Assembly (NCBI GenBank): GCA_029259535.1
Contig: JAPHEF010000004.1
Coordinates: 5,408 to 69,407, forward strand
DNA length: 64,000 nt
Direction of reading: 5' to 3'
DNA from: Candidatus Alkanophaga liquidiphilum
GTDB lineage: Archaea; Halobacteriota; Syntropharchaeia; Alkanophagales; B39-G2
Part shown: in pieces, positions 4,620 to 49,234 of the stretch
How the letters are laid out: each line of letters opens with the position of its first letter
Position numbering within the stretch: position 1 is the first letter of the stretch
Translations under genes and position numbers: made by a program
The notes under the pieces: generated by a model
Told to the model about the DNA's origin: nothing
The model's database searches: none
Seen by the model: only the letters and a program-made list of their open reading frames with translations

Positions 4620-5375
4620 CTATCCGATGTAAGAAAATTCCTCCTTTTTCCTCTCAGTTTTCAGCCTTTCAGCCATATATCTCTCAAACTCCTCATCAAG
4701 CTTATCACTCTCAGCTTTTATCTCTTTTAAATCCAGCTCTATGCCTATTATTTCAACAAGCTTCTCTAAGACGACTTTTGCGCCCTTGGGGTCGGGGTAT
4801 GCGCCGTGCGTCTCGCCGAGCAAGCAAATTACCTCGAAGCCACGCTCCTTGCCGAGCCCGAGGAGGACGCCGGTGATGCCGAAGACGTTGCCACTGCTCC
4901 CCACTTTTAAGCCGTATCTTCGCATCTCTTCGACGAGTTCGTCGCTCGTCGCAATGACGTAGACGCCCGGATTCTTCAAATACCGCCCGGTCGTGTAACC
5001 GCCGAGCGTGAAAATCCTCGAAACTGAAAACTCGGCGCACAAGTCCAAAAGCGTATCCGCATATTTGTAATAGTTCTCGGGGCGATAGCCTTGGTAGTAG
5101 CCCGTCAGGATTATCAAATTGCTCTTTTCGTCATAAAAAAGCTCATCTTTTAGGAGCTCAGCGACGCCCTGCTCGTATTTTACGCCCGGGATGAGGAGCG
5201 GCGGCATCGCAAAAAACTGCGAATATACGTCGGCGAGCTTCTTCCCGTGCAGCTTTCTTATCAGATACTCAGCGGCGAGCCTCCCGACATCGCCCACGCC
5301 GCTCAGCCCTTCTATGAAAATCGGGTTTTTGAGGCGAGGCTTCTTAGTCCTGTATTTTATTACGGTTTCTTCCAT
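4620..5375 (-). CDS. PAC2 (proteasome assembly chaperone-like) family protein, paralog 1
   Basis: ORF 4620..5471; likely start is MEETVIKYRTKKPRLKNPIFIEGLSGVGDVG. It is a paralog of 28972..29769 (shared GLLLGLGKERGFE..CLLGETHG.YPDPK). Confidence 0.7.
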   Translation of the reverse strand: MEETVIKYRTKKPRLKNPIFIEGLSGVGDVGRLAAEYLIRKLHGKKLADVYSQFFAMPPLLIPGVKYEQGVAELLKDELFYDEKSNLIILTGYYQGYRPENYYKYADTLLDLCAEFSVSRIFTLGGYTTGRYLKNPGVYVIATSDELVEEMRRYGLKVGSSGNVFGITGVLLGLGKERGFEVICLLGETHGAYPDPKGAKVVLEKLVEIIGIELDLKEIKAESDKLDEEFERYMAERLKTERKKEEFSYIG

Positions 5376-6132: not shown

Positions 6133-9100
6133 ATGCGGGCGTGGCAACCTATTTTCATGTCTTCAGAGACGAGAGTCATCCCTGTGAGTGTCGAGGACGA
6201 GATGCGCACTTCTTACCTTGATTATGCGATGAGTGTCATCGTCGGAAGGGCGATTCCAGATGTGCGTGATGGTTTGAAGCCAGTACACCGCCGCATCATC
6301 TATGCAATGTATGAGATGGGGCTGACCGCTGATAAGCCGCACAAAAAGTGCGCAAGGGTCGTCGGCGAGGTTCTCGGCAAGTATCATCCGCACGGCGACG
6401 CTGCCGTCTACGACACGCTCGTCAGGATGGCGCAGTCGTTCTCGTATCGCTACCCGCTGATTGACGGGCAAGGGAACTTCGGCTCGGTGGATGGCGACGC
6501 GCCAGCGGCAATGCGCTATTGCCTTACCGGGGAGACGCTGATTGTTACAGAGAGGGGTTTGATGCGGCTTGAGGACGTGGTGCCGAGGTCGAAGGAATGC
6601 TCCGAGCACGAGATTTCGCTCGGCGTTCTCTCTCATTTAGGAGAAGCGCTTGCAGACTGCTTTTTCAACTCAGGTCGCCACCCAGTCCTGCGTGTCGAGA
6701 CCGAGATGGGGCAGAGCTTTTCCGGAACGAGCAACCATCCCGTCCTCGTGTGGGTGCGTGGCGAGGACGGTCGGCCGACGCTCGCTTGGAAGCTTCTTGG
6801 GGATTTGAAGCCCGGGGACTGGCTCGTGGTCCAGAGGGGTTTCCCCTCCGCCAAAGAGCGTTACAAGACGGGATGCCCCCTCGCCCCAGAAGTGACGGAG
6901 GGGCTTGCCTTCCTCCTCGGCGCCCTCCTCGCAGGAGGCTACGTCTCTGAAGGGAAAGTAGGCTTCAACAACACCGACCCCAACTTCGTGGCTGCTGTCG
7001 AAAACGAGCTTCAGAAGCTCATAGATGCCCGCTACTGCCGCTACGTTCACACGCTCCCCAACGGAAAGAAGGTGATAGAGCTTCAAATCTACGTGAGAGA
7101 ATTTCTCTCCCTGGTGGAGGCGCTCGGCTTCGTCGAGAAGAGTTGGGAGAGGAGGGTTCCGAAGGCTGTCTTAGCTTCGCCGAAAGAGGTTCAGAGAGCC
7201 TTTTTGAAAGCCCTCTTTGGGGGAGGCGGCTCAGTCTCTAAAGGAAAGAATACAGTACTCCTCGCCTACCGCTCGAAGAGCAGGAGGCTTCTTGAGGACC
7301 TTCAGGTTCTTCTCCTTTCCTTCGGCGTGGTCTCCAAGCTCCACAGAGATGGAAAAAATTGGAGACTGTTCATCTCAGGAATTAAAAACGTGGCAACGTT
7401 CGCCAGGGAAATAGGCTTTGCTGGAAAGAAGCAAGGAAAGCTTGAAGCACTTCTCACGGAGTTTAGGGGGGAGGCTCTCAGCAAGACTGATTTCATCCCC
7501 TTCCTCGCAGATTACTTGCGCGAACGTTACAAAGGTCGAGGCTGGGACATATGGCTACAAAAGCACAATATAGACCGCTACGAGCGTCTCTCAAGATACC
7601 TCCCAGAGCTTGAGAAGTTTTTAGAGCCTGAAGACTTTATTTTTGTCCTTTGGCTCCTCGAAAGGCACTTCTACTTCACGAAAGTCTCGGCAGTCCATTA
7701 TGATGGACAACAGACCGTTTACTCCCTGCGCGTCCCGGGACCGAACTCCTTTGTCGGGAATGGCTTCATACATCACAACACCGAAGCTCGCCTCTCCAAA
7801 ATTGCTGGGGAGCTGATAGCGGACATCCAGAAGAACACTGTTGGCTGGATGCCAAACTTCGACAACACGCTGAAAGAGCCGGTGGTGCTGCCCGCACGCC
7901 TCCCGAACCTCCTCGTGAACGGCACCTCCGGCATTGCAGTGGGCATGGCGACGAACATGCCGCCGCACAACTTGAGCGAAGTCGTGGATGCCATCGTAAG
8001 GTTCATAGACGAGCCTGAGGTGAGCATCGAGGAGTTGATGCAGGCGATAAAAGGTCCGGACTTCCCGACGGGCGGCGTGATTCTCGGGACTGAGGGGATA
8101 AAAAAAGCATATGAGACGGGGCGTGGCACCATAAAGATAAGAGCCGCCGTGGAGATAGAGGAGTCACGGCGGCGAGCCCGTGTAATAATCAAGGAAATCC
8201 CGTATCAAGTGAACAAGAGTGCGCTCGTCGAAGAGATTGCGAATCTCGTGCGGGAGCGGCGCATAGAGGGCATTGCCGACTTGCGGGACGAATCAGACCG
8301 CCGAGGACTGAGGATAGTCATCGAGCTCAAGCCCGGTGCGAATCCTGAGGTTATTTTGAACAATCTGTATAAGCACACGCCGCTTGAAGTCTCATACGGT
8401 ATCATAAACCTTGCACTCGTCAACGGCGAGCCTCGAATCCTTACGTTGAAGGATTTGATTAGGCATTACGTAGAACATCGCAAAGAAGTCGTGCGCCGTC
8501 GCCTTAACTACGAGCTTGAGGTCTCAGAGCGTAGGAAGCACGTCCTCGAGGGGCTTCTTGTGGCACTGGACAACATAGAGGAGGTTGTAAGAATAATAAA
8601 GTCAGCAAGGAAGACCGAGGACGCAAGAAGAATTTTGGTTTCGAGGTTTCGGCTTAGCGACGTGCAGGCAAAGGAAATACTTGAGATGCGGCTGTCAAGA
8701 CTTAGCGCTCTGGAGAGGGAGAAAATAGAGACGGAGGCGAGGGAGCTTGAGGGGAAGGTGGCGGGCATAAAGGAGACGTTAGCGAGCGAGCTACGAATAC
8801 TTGATGTGATAAAAGGGGAACTGAGGGAGATTAGGGAGAAATACGGCGACGAGAGACGGACTAAAATAGGAGAATACGTGGAGATAAAAGAGATTGATTT
8901 GATAGAGCGGCGGAACGACATTGTTATCGTTACTGCGGGCGGCTACATAAAGCGAATGCCAGAGGCGGCTTTCAGGAAACAAGAGCGTGGCGGGAAGGGC
9001 AGGAATGCGATGGCGCGGAAAGAAGAGGACATTATAAAGAGTCTTGCGTTCTCTTCGACGCTCGATTACTTGCTAATACTCACGAAGGACGGTAGGGCTT

Positions 9101-9852
9101 ACATGATCAGGACGTATGAAGTTCCGGAGGGGGGATGGCACGCTAAGGGGCGTCCACTAAGGAGCGTTTTGGGGACAGAGGTCGGAACTGAGATTGCCAC
9201 GCTCCTCTCTGTTCCGAGAAGGTTTTTGGGCGAGGAAAGGTATTTGGTGCTCGTGACGAGAAAGGGTGTCGTCAAGAGACTGCGGCTGGCGAATTTTAAA
9301 AGCGTCAGGCGGAGCGGCATGCTCGCCGTCCGTGTTCTTGAGGGCGATGAGCTCGTGGCAGCGATGCTGACAAGCGGCAGCGATGACGTGCTCATCGCTA
9401 CAAGGAAGGGCAAAGTAATACGGTTTTCGGAAGAGGAGCTGCGGGAGATGGGCAGGTATGCAAGGGGCGTCCGCGGCATCAGGCTTGACGGCGGCGACGA
9501 GGTCGTTGCTGCGGATACGCTACATTCAGATATAGTGCAGGAGAAAAGGGCTGCGGTTTTTATAGTCACAGAAAAAGGATATGGCAAGAATACGAACATT
9601 GAAGAATTCAGGAAGACAAGAAGAGGTGGAAAGGGGGTCATGGGAATAAGAGTAAGTGAAAAGAGCGGCGGCGTAGTCTCGATAAAAGAAGTGCGAAGCA
9701 GTGATGAGATGCTCCTGATGACCTCAGGAGGAATGGCAATAAAGATTGCAGCGAAGAGCATACCTCGGCATAAGCGGGGCGCACGTGGCGTCAAGCTCAT
9801 GGACGTGGATGACAAAGAGCGGGTTACTGCCGTGGTGGTTGTTAGGAAGTAG
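6133..9852 (+). CDS. gyrA: DNA gyrase subunit A (intein-containing precursor)
   Basis: [25 protein letters not shown] and GKYHPHGD motifs. AAMRY is followed by the intein and then [10 protein letters not shown]-terminal beta-pinwheel repeats are present. An alternative start lies at 6157. Confidence 0.95.
6520..7779 (+). mobile_element. GyrA intein (420 aa) with LAGLIDADG homing-endonuclease domain
   Basis: N-extein ends AAMRY and the intein starts CLTGETLIV (Cys codon 6520-6522). Block B is GTSNHPVLV. The LAGLIDADG motifs are [17 protein letters not shown] and [13 protein letters not shown]. The intein ends GFIHHN (Asn codon 7777-7779), with +1 residue Thr of TEARL. Confidence 0.9.
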
Positions 9853-14494: not shown

Positions 14495-14671
14495 AAAATA
14501 AAGATTAGCGTCTCTGATTTAGCAGTTACGCTTACTTCGCGAGACCGCCTCATGGAAGTAATAGCGTTTGCCATTCCCGCCGTAAGGGCCACTTTTGAGG
14601 TCAGAAAAAAGTGCCGAGTGCGTGCCACATCACAATTAAGAATAGTAGAGTGGATTAAGATATTCTACAGA

Positions 14672-14910
14672 AGTCAACTACCCCTCCCTGACGGAAGGGG
14701 CTTGTAGGTGATTCCAATGTGGAACCCCTACATCAGGCCGGTTGACCGCGGCCCTGCGGACAGGAGCCCGCTCCCGTCCACAAGCATCATCGCCCTCGAA
14801 GCGTCCGGGTGCCTTAGGGCTTCCGCTTAAGCAATGTTAAAACATAAGTTTAAAAAGTTAACGGAGGTGAGAAGCCCGCTTTCCTTCCCACCCTTACGGA
14901 TGGGGTCTCC
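14672..14910 (+). repeat. copy A of an unclassified structured non-coding element (see 34391..34642)
   Basis: It aligns block by block with the reverse complement of 34391..34642. Shared blocks: agtcaactacc, ggcttgtaggtgatt, aacccctacatcagg, ggagcccgctcc, agcatcatcgcc, gggtgccttagggcttccgcttaa, tttaaaag, taacggRggtgagaa, ggtctcc. Indels of 7 and 5 nt argue against coding. Confidence 0.75.
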
Positions 14911-14932
14911 AGCGGGCGCGTGAGGTGAAAAG

Positions 14933-16243
14933 ATGGAAGGGCACGTCCCTAGGACGCATTACTCCAAAGAGATACGCCCGGAGATGGACGGCGAGGAGGT
15001 CGTGGCGGCGGGCTGGGTGCACGAGCGCCGTGATCTCGGCGGCTTGCTCTTTTTGATACTCAGGGATAGGGAGGGCTTCGTCCAAGTAACGCTGCGCAAG
15101 GACCGGACGAGCGAGAAGCTTCTTGAGTGTGTTAAGCGGCTGAGCAAAGAGTCGGTCGTCTCGGTGCGTGGCATCGTGCGCAGCGACAAAAGGGCGCCGA
15201 ATGGATGCGAGCTCATCCCCAAGGAGATAAAGGTGCTGAGCGTAGCCGAGACGCCGCTACCGCTCGAAGTTTCAGGTCGCATAAGGTCTGAACTTGATAC
15301 GAGGCTCGACGTTCGGTTTCTGGACCTGCGAATCCCGCGTAACCGGGAAATCTTCAGAATACGGAGCGAAGTTCTGAAGGAGATAAGAAGGTTTTTGGAC
15401 GGGCGGGGCTTCATTGAGGTGAATACCCCGAAAATCGTGGCGGCGGCGACCGAAGGTGGCACCGCCCTCTTCCCAATTTCGTATTTTGAGCGGGAAGCCT
15501 TCCTGAGCCAGAGCCCGCAGCTCTACAAGCAAATGTTGATGGCGACCGGACTCGACAGGGTTTACGAGATTGCGCCGATTTTCAGAGCCGAGGAGCACGA
15601 CACGACGAGGCATTTGAACGAGGCGACGTCCGCCGACATCGAAGCGGCGTTCGCCGACCACGAATGGGTGATGCGCACGCTGGAAGCGCTTATCGCCTCC
15701 GTTTACGAGAACATCCGGGAGAATTCCAGCGGAAGCCTTGAGGTTCTAGGGGTAGAGCTGCCGGAGGTGAAGCCGCCATTCGAGCGGATAACCTATACCG
15801 AAGCTTTAGAGCTGCTGGCGGAGCGTAGCGTCGAGCTTGAGTGGGGGGAAGACCTGAGCACCGCCGCCGAGAAAACGCTCGGTGAAATCATGGGCGCCCA
15901 CTATTTCATCGTAGAATGGCCGACGAGCGTCAAACCCTATTACACGATGCCTTTCGAGGGTCGTGAAGAAGTCTGCAAAGCGTTCGACCTCATGCATCCA
16001 AGAATGGAGCTTGCCTCGGGATCGCAGAGGATTCATGACTATGAAATGCTACGTGCGAGCATAGAGCGGTGCGGGCTGAGCCCTGAAAGCTTCAAGTTCT
16101 ATCTGGATGCGTTCCGCTACGGCATGCCGCCGCATGCCGGCTGGGGGCTCGGCGTCGAAAGACTCCTGATGACCATGCTCGAAATCGAGAACATTAGAGA
16201 GGTCATCCTCTTCCCCAGAGACCGCAAAAGGCTCGTGCCGTAG
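14933..16243 (+). CDS. aspS: aspartyl-tRNA synthetase (archaeal type)
   Basis: OB-fold N-terminus (GWVHERRDLGGLLFLILRD) and class II motifs FRAEEHDTTRHLNE and GLGVERL; 436 aa. Confidence 0.95.
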   Translation: MEGHVPRTHYSKEIRPEMDGEEVVAAGWVHERRDLGGLLFLILRDREGFVQVTLRKDRTSEKLLECVKRLSKESVVSVRGIVRSDKRAPNGCELIPKEIKVLSVAETPLPLEVSGRIRSELDTRLDVRFLDLRIPRNREIFRIRSEVLKEIRRFLDGRGFIEVNTPKIVAAATEGGTALFPISYFEREAFLSQSPQLYKQMLMATGLDRVYEIAPIFRAEEHDTTRHLNEATSADIEAAFADHEWVMRTLEALIASVYENIRENSSGSLEVLGVELPEVKPPFERITYTEALELLAERSVELEWGEDLSTAAEKTLGEIMGAHYFIVEWPTSVKPYYTMPFEGREEVCKAFDLMHPRMELASGSQRIHDYEMLRASIERCGLSPESFKFYLDAFRYGMPPHAGWGLGVERLLMTMLEIENIREVILFPRDRKRLVP

Positions 16244-33758: not shown

Positions 33759-34358
33759 CTAAAGTCTCTTCTGGTAGATTCGAGAGGCAACGCCAAGAAC
33801 GGCAGCGAGCACCGCCGCCACGAATGCGAGCGTGAGCGTCATGCGGACGGGGGCGGAGAAGCGGGCGTTCGCCAACTCGATGACGACGCTGCCCTCGCCA
33901 TAAAAGTAAGGCAAGGCGCTTCGTAGCTGGAGCGGGGCGCCGCCTATTAAGGCGCCGAAAGCCTCGGAGGAATAATTTAGGAGCACGGTAAGGAAGAGCA
34001 ACGCCGCAACGAACGCCATAACGAGCCAGAGGAGCTTTCTTGCGCTGAAGAGGACAAGCGTTTCCGCAGCCGTCGCTCGCCGTTCTGAGGCGGTGAGGAT
34101 CGAGCCTACGAGGAGAAGCATGCCCAAGTAAACGACGACGAGCTTGAGCGCAAGGCAAATCCACCAGAACAGTGGCGAGTGCACCACCTCACTGCCAAAG
34201 AACCACACCTCCACCTCAAACGGTGACACCGCCATGATTACGGCTCTGTCGCCAAGCGTGAGCCGCCACCACGCACCCATGAGCGGCAAAGCCAGCGTGA
34301 ACAAACCCGCAACTACTCCCAGCCAGTTTATTCTACGCCACACCTTCTCCTCAGACAT
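33759..34358 (-). CDS. multi-pass membrane protein, unknown function
   Basis: Five or six hydrophobic segments. It lies directly downstream of repeat copy B on the same strand. Confidence 0.5.
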   Translation of the reverse strand: MSEEKVWRRINWLGVVAGLFTLALPLMGAWWRLTLGDRAVIMAVSPFEVEVWFFGSEVVHSPLFWWICLALKLVVVYLGMLLLVGSILTASERRATAAETLVLFSARKLLWLVMAFVAALLFLTVLLNYSSEAFGALIGGAPLQLRSALPYFYGEGSVVIELANARFSAPVRMTLTLAFVAAVLAAVLGVASRIYQKRL

Positions 34359-34390
34359 TAAAATCCCCTAATTCATAGCTCTTGGTGGCA

Positions 34391-34642
34391 GGAGACCACC
34401 CGACGGGTGGAGGAATGCCGCCTTTCTCACCCCCGTTAGCTTTTAAAGTCGGGCTCCAATATTACTTTAAGCGGAAGCCCTAAGGCACCCTTTGGGAAAC
34501 CGCTGTGGGGCGATGATGCTTGAAACTGTGTGGATAGGAGCGGGCTCCCGTCCACAGGGCTGCTGTCAACCAGCCTGATGTAGGGGTTGTCCTGCATGGC
34601 AATCACCTACAAGCCTCCCGTTTCAACGGGTGGTAGTTGACT
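34391..34642 (-). repeat. copy B of the structured non-coding element (see 14672..14910)
   Basis: Its reverse complement aligns with copy A. Its 5' end overlaps the last codons and TGA stop (34623-34625) of the upstream gene. Confidence 0.75.
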
Positions 34643-35108
34643 CCCACACTTCCAGAATTATCCCACTAACGTTTATCCTCATGGATGCGCTGCGAAGCGT
34701 CAACTGCTCTGAGGATTTGGCGTTTTCAAGAGCTTCTGCTGGTAGCTTCCCTTCCAGCCGCAAATTAGCCGAGCCTTTTGCTGGAACTTCAACGGCATTC
34801 GGCAGACTCACAACGCTCGTGCTTTCTCCTACGGCAACTTCCACCGAAAGCTCTTCTACCTGCACGGGCACGCTCAGCAGCGAATTCAACTTCAGCTCAA
34901 GAACGAATGTCCCATCTTCAGAGAGTTCGAAGCTCGCAACTTCCAAAAATTTCGCTTCGGCGTCGAGCTTGAAAGGCATGAGCCGCTTTACAGTCTTTGT
35001 CAGGTCTTCGGGAAAAAGAGCTGCCCGCCAACCATGCGTTGCGAACGCCGCCACAATGCACATGATTAATATGACCGTTGGAGCGGTAGAGAGGACGGCT
35101 TTTAGCAT
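34623..35108 (-). CDS. membrane-anchored hypothetical protein
   Basis: Start MLKAVLSTAPTVILIMCIVAAF (TM anchor), with TTTATAAA about 20 nt upstream (reverse strand near 35130). The remainder appears beta-rich. Confidence 0.5.
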   Translation of the reverse strand: MLKAVLSTAPTVILIMCIVAAFATHGWRAALFPEDLTKTVKRLMPFKLDAEAKFLEVASFELSEDGTFVLELKLNSLLSVPVQVEELSVEVAVGESTSVVSLPNAVEVPAKGSANLRLEGKLPAEALENAKSSEQLTLRSASMRINVSGIILEVWESTTTR

Positions 35109-35261
35109 CACACCAACATGATTCTCTAACTTTATAAATCGTTTGCGAGCTGCCCCTCGACAGCATAATCTCCATACGCGCCGCATCCAAGCGATGGGCA
35201 ACAACCACAAACCGAAAAGCTTAATTACTTATTAACATTAAACTCAACAAGGAGCTTAAGG

Positions 35262-49160: not shown

Positions 49161-49234
49161 GCCCCGGTAGCTTAGCCCGGAAGAGCGGCTGACTTGTAAT
49201 CAGCAGGTCGGGGGTTCAAATCCCCCCCGGGGCT
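49161..49234 (+). tRNA. tRNA-Thr (anticodon UGU)
   Basis: The cloverleaf was read by hand. Acceptor gccccgg/ccggggc, D arm gctt-agcccggaa-gagc, anticodon stem gctga/tcagc with loop cuUGUaa, T arm ggggg-ttcaaat-ccccc, discriminator t. No CCA is encoded. Confidence 0.9.

Follow-up and report, generated by a model that had tools for sequence, protein, structure and literature searches.

Mini-elements upstream of aspS and at further sites in Candidatus Alkanophaga: probable IS200/IS605 derivatives with a TnpB-type omega-RNA scaffold

The term PATE originates from haloarchaeal elements. PATE-like members of the IS200/IS605 family, which have no open reading frame (ORF) and encode omega-RNAs, are already known from Geobacillus stearothermophilus, and the way in which such RNAs are used is also described: PATE elements "often encode omega-RNAs", which are necessarily used in trans (Meers et al. 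2023, PMC10055086). For the omega-RNA of ISDra2, Nakagawa et al. (2023, PMC10097598) describe a 116-nucleotide (nt) scaffold in which four stems are joined by a pseudoknot next to the guide, the guide being the 16 nt at the 3′ end, and in Halobacterium, as far as the citation in PMC10055086 describes them, sense-overlapping transcripts (sotRNAs) belong to IS1341-type tnpB genes. We analyzed a 64,000-nt stretch of the genome of Candidatus (Ca.) Alkanophaga liquidiphilum (the window; G+C content, 53%) that contains two similar multi-hairpin regions, copy A directly upstream of the aspartyl-tRNA synthetase gene aspS and copy B next to a 199-aa ORF. The initial annotation had suggested that they could be a new structured small RNA (sRNA) followed by a shared promoter and leader, or else a duplicated regulatory cassette. 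Our results indicate that copies A and B are very probably ORF-less, non-autonomous derivatives of TnpB-type IS200/IS605 elements, that is, PATE-like mini-transposons carrying an omega-RNA (reRNA) scaffold. We observed the anatomy of the ends, exact boundaries, insertion at several sites, covariation in four helices and homology with tnpB right ends; the mini-element is a mobile element of an already described kind, hosted by Ca. Alkanophaga, and an unclassified new sRNA is excluded. The genus belongs to the order Ca. Alkanophagales (Methanomicrobia), and the aspartyl-tRNA synthetase encoded in the window shares 60-66% identity with its counterparts in ANME-1, Methanocellales and Methanoperedens.

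The stretch 14600-14960 of the window aligns with 34340-34700 in reverse complement. When copies A and B themselves were aligned globally, 200 positions matched, 43 were mismatched and 31 columns held gaps, so that 82% of the aligned bases are identical; a 24-nt block, GGGTGCCTTAGGGCTTCCGCTTAA, is present at exactly two places in the window, where 0.00 occurrences were expected. The similarity noted first is real and well beyond chance. The regions are longer than first described, extending over 252 nt (14673-14924) and 265 nt (34377-34641) up to GTGAA and ATGAA, respectively. Indels, given earlier as 7 and 5 nt, are present, but the gaps span 1 to 8 columns. Short ORFs traverse the region; since the gap lengths are not multiples of three, the element is not coding as it stands, in agreement with the earlier description of a duplicated, non-coding, multi-hairpin element. 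On the top strand, which is the tnpB-sense strand (minus in the window for copy A, plus for copy B), both copies read TTCAY, 19 nt, a left-end hairpin, a conserved TTCTCACCYCCGTTAR, TTTT(T)AAA, a non-conserved stretch of 18-19 nt, the 24-nt block, ~140 nt more of scaffold, a right-end hairpin, TAGTTGAC and then host flank. We would interpret this order as host TTCAY, 19-nt linker, left-end hairpin, putative B recognition element (BRE)-like/TATA box, short variable spacer, scaffold, right-end hairpin, UAGUUGAC and host flank. The TATA-like box noticed initially is indeed present and, together with the sequence preceding it, is conserved in A and B; of the spacer between it and the 24-nt block only the length is kept.

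The subterminal hairpins are imperfect (top strand: left, CCCCATCCGTAAGGGTGGG in A and CCACCCGACGGGTGG in B; right, CCCCTTCCGTCAGGGAGGGG in A and CCTCCCGTTTCAACGGGTGG in B); those of copy B can be written as CCACCCG-A-CGGGTGG on the left and CCTCCCG-TTTCAA-CGGGTGG on the right. Terminal inverted repeats are absent (CTCACG.../AGCTCT... at one end versus ...GTAGTTGAC at the other). The left-end hairpin of each subtype resembles the right-end hairpin of the same subtype, which is the pattern expected if one TnpA recognizes both ends, and in copy A an outer stem of the left end (14874-14880 paired with 14911-14917) shows three compensatory changes relative to B. The left hairpin is spaced 19 nt from the boundary in both subtypes, and the right boundary lies 8 nt past the foot of the right hairpin. 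Barabas et al. are said to have found in 2008 that in IS608 the cleavage site is separated from the hairpin by 19 nt on the left and by 10 nt on the right, the left-end spacing being the same as in both Alkanophaga subtypes. All hairpins listed in the initial annotation were recovered with their compensatory changes. However, the one at 14681-14700, formerly read as part of an sRNA, is the transposon right-end hairpin, and the CCACCC-loop-GGGUGG structure, formerly a leader hairpin, is the left-end hairpin.

Copies elsewhere in the organism had been suggested as a check. A 20-mer scan of public metagenomes recovered six contigs from two JGI samples; these cover the loci orthologous to A and B as well as two further loci, which carry copy C (L133/L131) and copy D (L134); no third copy was found in the 64-kb window. 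All four loci have exact common boundaries, similarity stopping right before GTCAAC and after ATGAA (GTGAA in A). The left end adjoins TTCAT in B, C and D and TTCAC in A, nothing is repeated at the right end, and there is no target-site duplication. In Geobacillus, TTCAT has been reported as a transposon-adjacent motif (TAM) of IS605-family elements (PMC10055086). Copy C interrupts a coding gene; a protein encoded at its locus is 99% identical to one from Ca. Alkanophaga liquidiphilum and lies on the metagenome-assembled genome GCA_053996935.1. When the sequence after TTCAT up to GTTGAC was deleted in silico, the reading frame became ...RVREEEF|INIHPIQAGGRL; the junction is bridged by SepCysS homologs with 95-97% coverage, in all of which R-EEEFINI-PIQA-GRL is unchanged, and removal of copy C restores the invariant motif REEEFINIHPIQAGGRL. 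This empty site, exact and without target duplication, is the signature of IS200/IS605 transposition. The SepCysS-like gene (L133 1200-1989; also L147 in GCA_053996935.1) is split by copy C at codon ~75; its downstream part stops early (…AHYGSIES*) compared with the homologs, so this paralog may be a pseudogene.

The B subtype was inserted at three or more sites. Contigs of independent assemblies from Logan (SRR222147xx/SRR222148xx) and from JGI Ga0164311 (L001-L004, L131, L132, L134, L135) repeatedly end inside the element, and some begin 180 nt upstream of aspS; such breaks are expected of a repeat and are consistent with more genomic copies than the four recovered loci. Elsewhere, a genome-collection scan with a 20-mer gave one chance match (Bradyrhizobium, no Rfam match), a viral-contig scan with a 16-mer gave five chance matches only, and distant blastn against plasmids and phages gave nothing relevant, the sole match being 33 nt of a Bacillus phage.

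The Alkanophaga element thus resembles the PATE-like elements in having no protein gene, subterminal hairpins at the left and right ends and several copies per genome, in being inserted beside a TTCAT-type motif without target duplication, and in retaining an omega-RNA scaffold, predicted to be used by a TnpB encoded elsewhere. It differs from those of Geobacillus in its host, an uncultured thermophilic archaeon, in its two subtypes, 18% apart, with co-varying left and right hairpins, and in the archaeal TATA box directly before the scaffold; that TnpA would mobilize it and TnpB make use of it are predictions here.

The interior of the element is related to the right ends of tnpB elements. A pattern scan of viral contigs for GTCAACTACC-N14-18-GGCTTG yielded at least 120 loci, and since a hairpin occupies the gap at nearly all of those listed, this module is a real, widespread motif. 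The best nhmmer matches to the window element were L114, L088, L061, L087, L081, L044, L115 and L098. At five of them with a readable flank (L081, L087, L098, L114 and L115), the opposite strand carries an ORF of 350-400 aa whose end and the GTCAAC boundary are 5-55 nt apart; among the at least 120 loci listed, 40 have an opposite-strand ORF of 306-511 aa ending within ~210 nt of the boundary, most of these with a TnpB-like zinc-ribbon C-terminus. The three opposite-strand ORFs that we checked were all TnpB (Cas12f1-like_TNB, PF07282, plus OrfB_IS605, PF01385). Since tnpB lies on the opposite strand in the nearest relatives, the module is an IS200/IS605 right end read on the bottom strand; ~90-115 nt at the right end of the element match right ends at about 40 viral-contig tnpB loci. 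A covariance model (CM), R1, built on the core scaffold of the tnpB-sense strand, produced full-length matches at tnpB right ends (58 bits at L044, 55 at L008 and 54 at L061), but only 20-29 bits on loci of the IscB type.

Translation of the strand opposite to that read initially pointed in the same direction. Copy A ends in ...GRERAPVRRAAVNRPDVGVPHWNHLQAPSVREG (remnant ORF ...RAAVNRPDVGVPHWNHLQAPSVREG), a 52-codon tnpB tail, and copy B reads ERAPVHRAAVNQPDVGVVLHGNHLQA... after a frameshift, the common pattern being ...ERAPV(R/H)RAAVN(R/Q)PDVGV...HLQA with the tail ...RAAVNRPDVG. TnpB tails at homologous loci are ...RARAAVNRPNG (L115), ...GRAAVNPPYV and ...SRAVVNQPIV; since they match the reverse-strand translation, the hairpin GGCCGGTTGACCGCGGCC is the reverse complement of the tnpB 3′-end codons AAVNRP. 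The first hairpin of the initial annotation, taken there for an sRNA hairpin, is accordingly both the pseudoknot hairpin described below and the reverse complement of the tnpB codons AAVN(R/Q)P. In all, ~165 nt inside the mini-element are a tnpB 3′-end remnant and, at the same time, the omega-RNA scaffold.

In the consensus fold of the tnpB-sense strand, the last 113-115 nt form four helices: stem 1, a hairpin with a GUCAAC loop, a long stem and the right-end hairpin. Across 55 distinct sequences, in an alignment fitted to the model, 92.1% of cells were paired, 35 of the 38 pairs were changed on both sides, and the covariation score was 0.522 versus 0.119 for shuffles and 0.04-0.06 for slid partners; G.U pairs numbered 120 versus 51 A.C combinations. 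Covariation above background, proposed initially as a test of a structured RNA, was thus found, on the opposite strand. Folding of both strands, a comparison independent of this alignment, gave −87.3 kcal/mol (z −4.53) for the tnpB-sense strand of copy A versus −64.5 (z −1.97) for the other strand, and −80.1 kcal/mol (z −2.82) versus −71.7 (z −1.47) for copy B. Any RNA that is made would most likely correspond to the tnpB-sense strand and not to the strand that was first read. The fourth hairpin of the initial annotation is scaffold stem 1 seen on the other strand, and the ACA following it has no H/ACA meaning.

A 6-bp pseudoknot is possible between the GUCAAC loop (hairpin at 14736-14753 / 34558-34575) and the complementary terminal GUUGAC beside the predicted guide. 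A third mini-element of the same genome (L144 4945-5037), situated some 8 kb before the start of the window, has GUGAAC/GUUCAC in place of GUCAAC/GUUGAC, a compensatory change, and the scaffold may possess a guide-adjacent pseudoknot. As in the ISDra2 reRNA, the scaffold covers the tnpB 3′ end plus the right end, has several stems and could pair its 3′ nucleotides with an upstream loop; the predicted guide is likewise the 16-nt flank 3′ of the right end, and the TAM a T-rich pentamer at the left end. By contrast, there is no detectable sequence similarity to ISDra2, and the pseudoknot partner lies ~70 nt from the 3′ end versus ~104 nt in ISDra2. Unlike that of ISDra2, the Alkanophaga RNA could not come from processing of tnpB mRNA, because the tnpB ORF has been deleted. 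The sotRNAs, as described in the citing source, are also archaeal RNAs derived from the tnpB 3′ end, a likeness of description; unlike the Alkanophaga element, they overlap an intact tnpB gene.

We propose that a Y1 TnpA encoded elsewhere would mobilize the element in single-stranded form and insert it at TTCAY sites. The TATA box inside the element may be the former tnpB promoter, now placed in front of the omega-RNA scaffold; in a full-length relative in the same genome (L144), TTTTTATAC lies ~20 nt before the tnpB ATG. This box would start transcription near the 24-nt block, which is probably the 5′ part of the omega-RNA, and a ~180-200-nt omega-RNA of the tnpB-sense strand would result, with the flank supplying its 3′ 16 nt (copy A, UUCUGUAGAAUAUCUU; copy B, UCCCACACUUCCAGAA). 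The RNA could then be used in trans by a TnpB encoded elsewhere, expected to end in ...AAVNRPDVGVPHWNHLQAPSVREG, which would cut the vacated TTCAY+flank site and so restore the element. A second target of the predicted guides was found in the window for neither copy (for copy B, no perfect second site), and inspection by eye for TnpA-style DNA-guide pairing of hairpin-adjacent bases with TTCAY/TTGAC gave no convincing case. Should the RNA prove to be expressed, the scaffold paired with a cognate thermophilic TnpB might make an interesting compact editor.

Several points weigh against this explanation as a whole. The existence, strand and ends of the RNA are deduced, and even without an RNA the helices at the two ends would be conserved, as hairpins that TnpA needs in single-stranded DNA. 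Most rows of the covariation alignment, itself fitted to the model, were picked by a pattern that fixes the terminal bases; the fold around the 24-nt block differs between A and B; and a single-nucleotide polymorphism in copy C (GGCTG to GGTTG) keeps its pair only on the strand of the initial annotation. Intact tnpB or tnpA genes with matching ends were not found, and none lies in the window; word-index and exhaustive HMMER searches with the 51-52-aa remnant as query found no TnpB, the exhaustive search returning a low-complexity protein, a second low-scoring match and a fusion of vapC to a right-end relic. No tnpA was seen in the 64-kb window plus ~60 kb of flanks. Fragments of tnpB from other subfamilies do occur in the same and related genomes (L144, L140).

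These observations bear on the possibility that copies A and B are inert relics, IS200/IS605 mini-elements that make no functional omega-RNA and whose helices are kept as TnpA DNA hairpins and by recent tnpB-coding ancestry. An intact cognate TnpB is missing from the window and from the remnant-peptide searches, the nearby tnpB genes of the same genome are fragmented (L144), and a 73-nt solo right-end relic exists in related metagenomes, all of which would fit such decay. On the other hand, A and B are 18% apart and yet have the same internal deletion, all four helices are kept, although two of them, stem 1 and the long stem, are dispensable for TnpA, and the 24-nt block and the TATA box are retained at a fixed distance. 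Moreover, the presence of the B subtype at three or more sites indicates that the lineage was still active after ORF loss. We therefore regard the inert relic as possible but unlikely.

A second alternative is a standalone IscB-type omega-RNA (HEARO RNA) on the strand of the initial annotation, with its guide 5′ of GUCAAC and used in trans by IscB; it was rejected because the closest relatives turned out to have their tnpB on the opposite strand. At gathering thresholds, Rfam matched only a tRNA in the whole window and nothing at the element copies, so the earlier statement that no known family fits (SRP, RNase P, riboswitches, C/D or H/ACA) holds at threshold. In a permissive scan, however, HEARO RF02033 was the top family for both copies, at 24 bits (E 0.0046; model positions 1-52 only) for copy A and 18.8 bits (E 0.08; model interior skipped) for copy B, far below the gathering score of 83; the other weak Rfam 15 matches, HgcC (13 bits) and c-di-GMP-I-GGC (11 bits), were at chance level. 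The likeness to HEARO is confined to the first ~50 nt, which in copy A are GUCAACUACC, a hairpin, GGCUUG and a closing GUUGAC; the rest of the model is unaligned. The same 5′ module also stands in front of true IscB genes, some pattern loci having one downstream on the same strand (e.g. L021, with RRXRR + HNH). The aligned part is nevertheless the right end that TnpB elements also have, the weak HEARO matches arising because IscB and TnpB elements have a common right end, and such a match cannot tell the two types apart. Furthermore, no IscB ORF (RRXRR/RuvC/HNH) lies within ~500 bp downstream on the same strand, where aspS and the 199-aa ORF are found, IscB loci score lowest with the CM, the interior translates to a TnpB tail, and the strand in question, opposite to the likely functional one, folds much less well. 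An IscB-type RNA is therefore highly improbable. The first ~52 positions of RF02033 correspond to a generic IS200/IS605 right end (window 14673-14746 and 34540-34641); TnpB-type right ends give weak HEARO matches on the strand opposite to the omega-RNA, a possible source of mis-annotation at low bit-score cut-offs.

Finally, a host cassette, in which a promoter and structured 5′ leader or a new cis-regulatory RNA was duplicated before aspS and a membrane-protein gene, would account for the TATA-like box and the SD-like (Shine-Dalgarno) GGRGGUGA facing the downstream genes and for a left end 0-18 nt from the start codon of a gene reading away from the element at three of the four loci, but is scarcely credible, given that copy C splits a coding gene in the other orientation, that the downstream genes are unrelated (aspS, a 199-aa ORF without Pfam match and an uncharacterized 395-aa ORF), that the aspS of the closest relative has a different IS relic in the same place (L140), and that the boundaries and target motif are those of a transposon. 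An apparent new structured sRNA or regulatory cassette is thereby removed as a false lead and replaced by a transposon relic of a described type. What is gained is an archaeal example, from the thermophilic alkane oxidizer Ca. Alkanophaga, of an ORF-less IS200/IS605 element that keeps an omega-RNA scaffold, in two diverged subtypes with co-varying end hairpins.

Table 1. Features of the two mini-element copies and their neighbours (window coordinates)
Feature	Position	Strand	Remarks
Copy A, whole ORF-less mini-element, 252 nt	14673..14924	-	similarity among A-D ends exactly here; CM R1 121 bits, minus strand
Target motif / TAM TTCAC, outside copy A	14925..14929	-	reads GTGAA on +; TTCAT in B, C, D
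Copy A left end	14887..14924	-	19-nt linker 14906-14924; left-end hairpin CCCCATCCGTAAGGGTGGG 14887-14905
Copy A TATA-like box region	14849..14873	-	TTTTTAAA at 14849-14857; conserved TTCTCACCTCCGTTAA before box on top strand; + strand reads TATA plus SD-like GGAGGTGA
Copy A 24-nt block	14807..14830	-	TTAAGCGGAAGCCCTAAGGCACCC on top strand; identical in all copies
Copy A core omega-RNA scaffold / right end	14673..14785	-	consensus fold, CM matches at tnpB right ends, covariation, remnant ORF
Copy A stem 1	14756-14782		
Copy A pseudoknot hairpin	14736-14753		loop GUCAAC
Copy A long stem	14703-14732		
Copy A right-end hairpin	14681-14700		
Copy A terminal UAGUUGAC	14673-14680		
Copy A predicted 16-nt guide	14657..14672	-	UUCUGUAGAAUAUCUU; host flank 3′ of scaffold; analogous to the guide of TnpB omega-RNAs (PMC10097598)
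Copy B, whole mini-element, 265 nt	34377..34641	+	CM R1 140 bits, plus strand
Copy B left-end linker	34377-34395		
Copy B left-end hairpin	34396-34410		
Copy B TATA-like box	34440-34447		
Copy B 24-nt block	34467-34490		
Copy B core scaffold	34527-34641		pseudoknot hairpin 34558-34575; right-end hairpin 34614-34633
Target motif TTCAT at copy B left end	34372..34376	+	
Copy B predicted guide	34642..34657	+	UCCCACACUUCCAGAA; host flank
aspS, neighbour	14933..16243	+	Pfam tRNA-synt_2 + OB anticodon domain; ATG 8 nt from copy A left end
199-aa ORF, neighbour	33759..34358	-	no Pfam match; ATG 18 nt from copy B left end, 13 nt past TAM

At the aspS locus, the Shine-Dalgarno sequence GAGGTGA is built from the last bases of the element (…GTGAG) and the target GTGAA. 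The element would have replaced everything upstream of aspS position −8 as a side effect of insertion, so that aspS is presumably now transcribed from within or through the element; the 199-aa ORF and the 395-aa uncharacterized ORF, whose ATG belongs to the ATGAA directly 3′ of copy D, must likewise be transcribed in this way. The TATA box is quasi-symmetric and could serve the downstream genes. As copy C splits a gene in the other orientation, association with gene starts is not a rule. In the closest relative (L140 5741-6282, contig ERZ26872903 NODE_4), whose AspS is 89% identical, the gene order around aspS is inverted and an empty site, which we sought among relatives, is replaced by two other tnpB C-terminal fragments (PF07282) just 5′ of aspS on the aspS strand. 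These have a different right-end type (…GGAGGTCAC), and one of them is annotated as an N-terminal extension of AspS (529 aa). The region upstream of aspS therefore acts as a recurrent landing site rather than a conserved leader, and the position of copy A beside aspS reflects an insertion. We consider it rather doubtful that the mini-elements are self-contained omega-RNA genes, with promoter, scaffold and flank guide, that lack a protein gene and yet persist and spread because they borrow TnpA and TnpB in trans, and that they have in addition become obligatory promoters or leaders at three of the four loci, including that of the essential aspS. The insertion 8 nt from the aspS start codon offers a clean natural case in which to ask how transcription of an essential gene proceeds through or from a transposon.

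Other IS200/IS605 remains were also seen. A 416-kb contig from this organism has a cluster of IS200/IS605 debris (L144 2850-5200) located ~5-8 kb before the point where the window begins; it comprises one frameshifted tnpB per strand, an ORF-less mini-element of ~255 nt (4945-5200) and, at 2850, the right end GGTAATTGAC, to which R1 gives 36 bits. In L137-L139 (e.g. L138 305-467), a 51-aa ORF joins the start of a PIN/VapC toxin gene to a related right end of ~73 nt (…INQPNVGVPHWNHLQTPSLRG*); this vapC lies downstream of an AF2212-like antitoxin gene and is truncated by the solo right-end relic. The right end of copy B is flanked by two overlapping ORFs of 195 aa (34623-35210, minus strand) and 163 aa (34630-35121, plus strand), neither with a Pfam match, and the minus-strand ORF enters copy B by 19 nt before its stop codon. 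The sole Rfam match above threshold in the window is a tRNA gene at 49161-49234 (plus strand, 69.5 bits). A 1239-aa ORF at 6133-9852 (plus strand) has an L144 counterpart in which DNA_topoisoIV/gyrase A domains are interrupted by a LAGLIDADG endonuclease intein.

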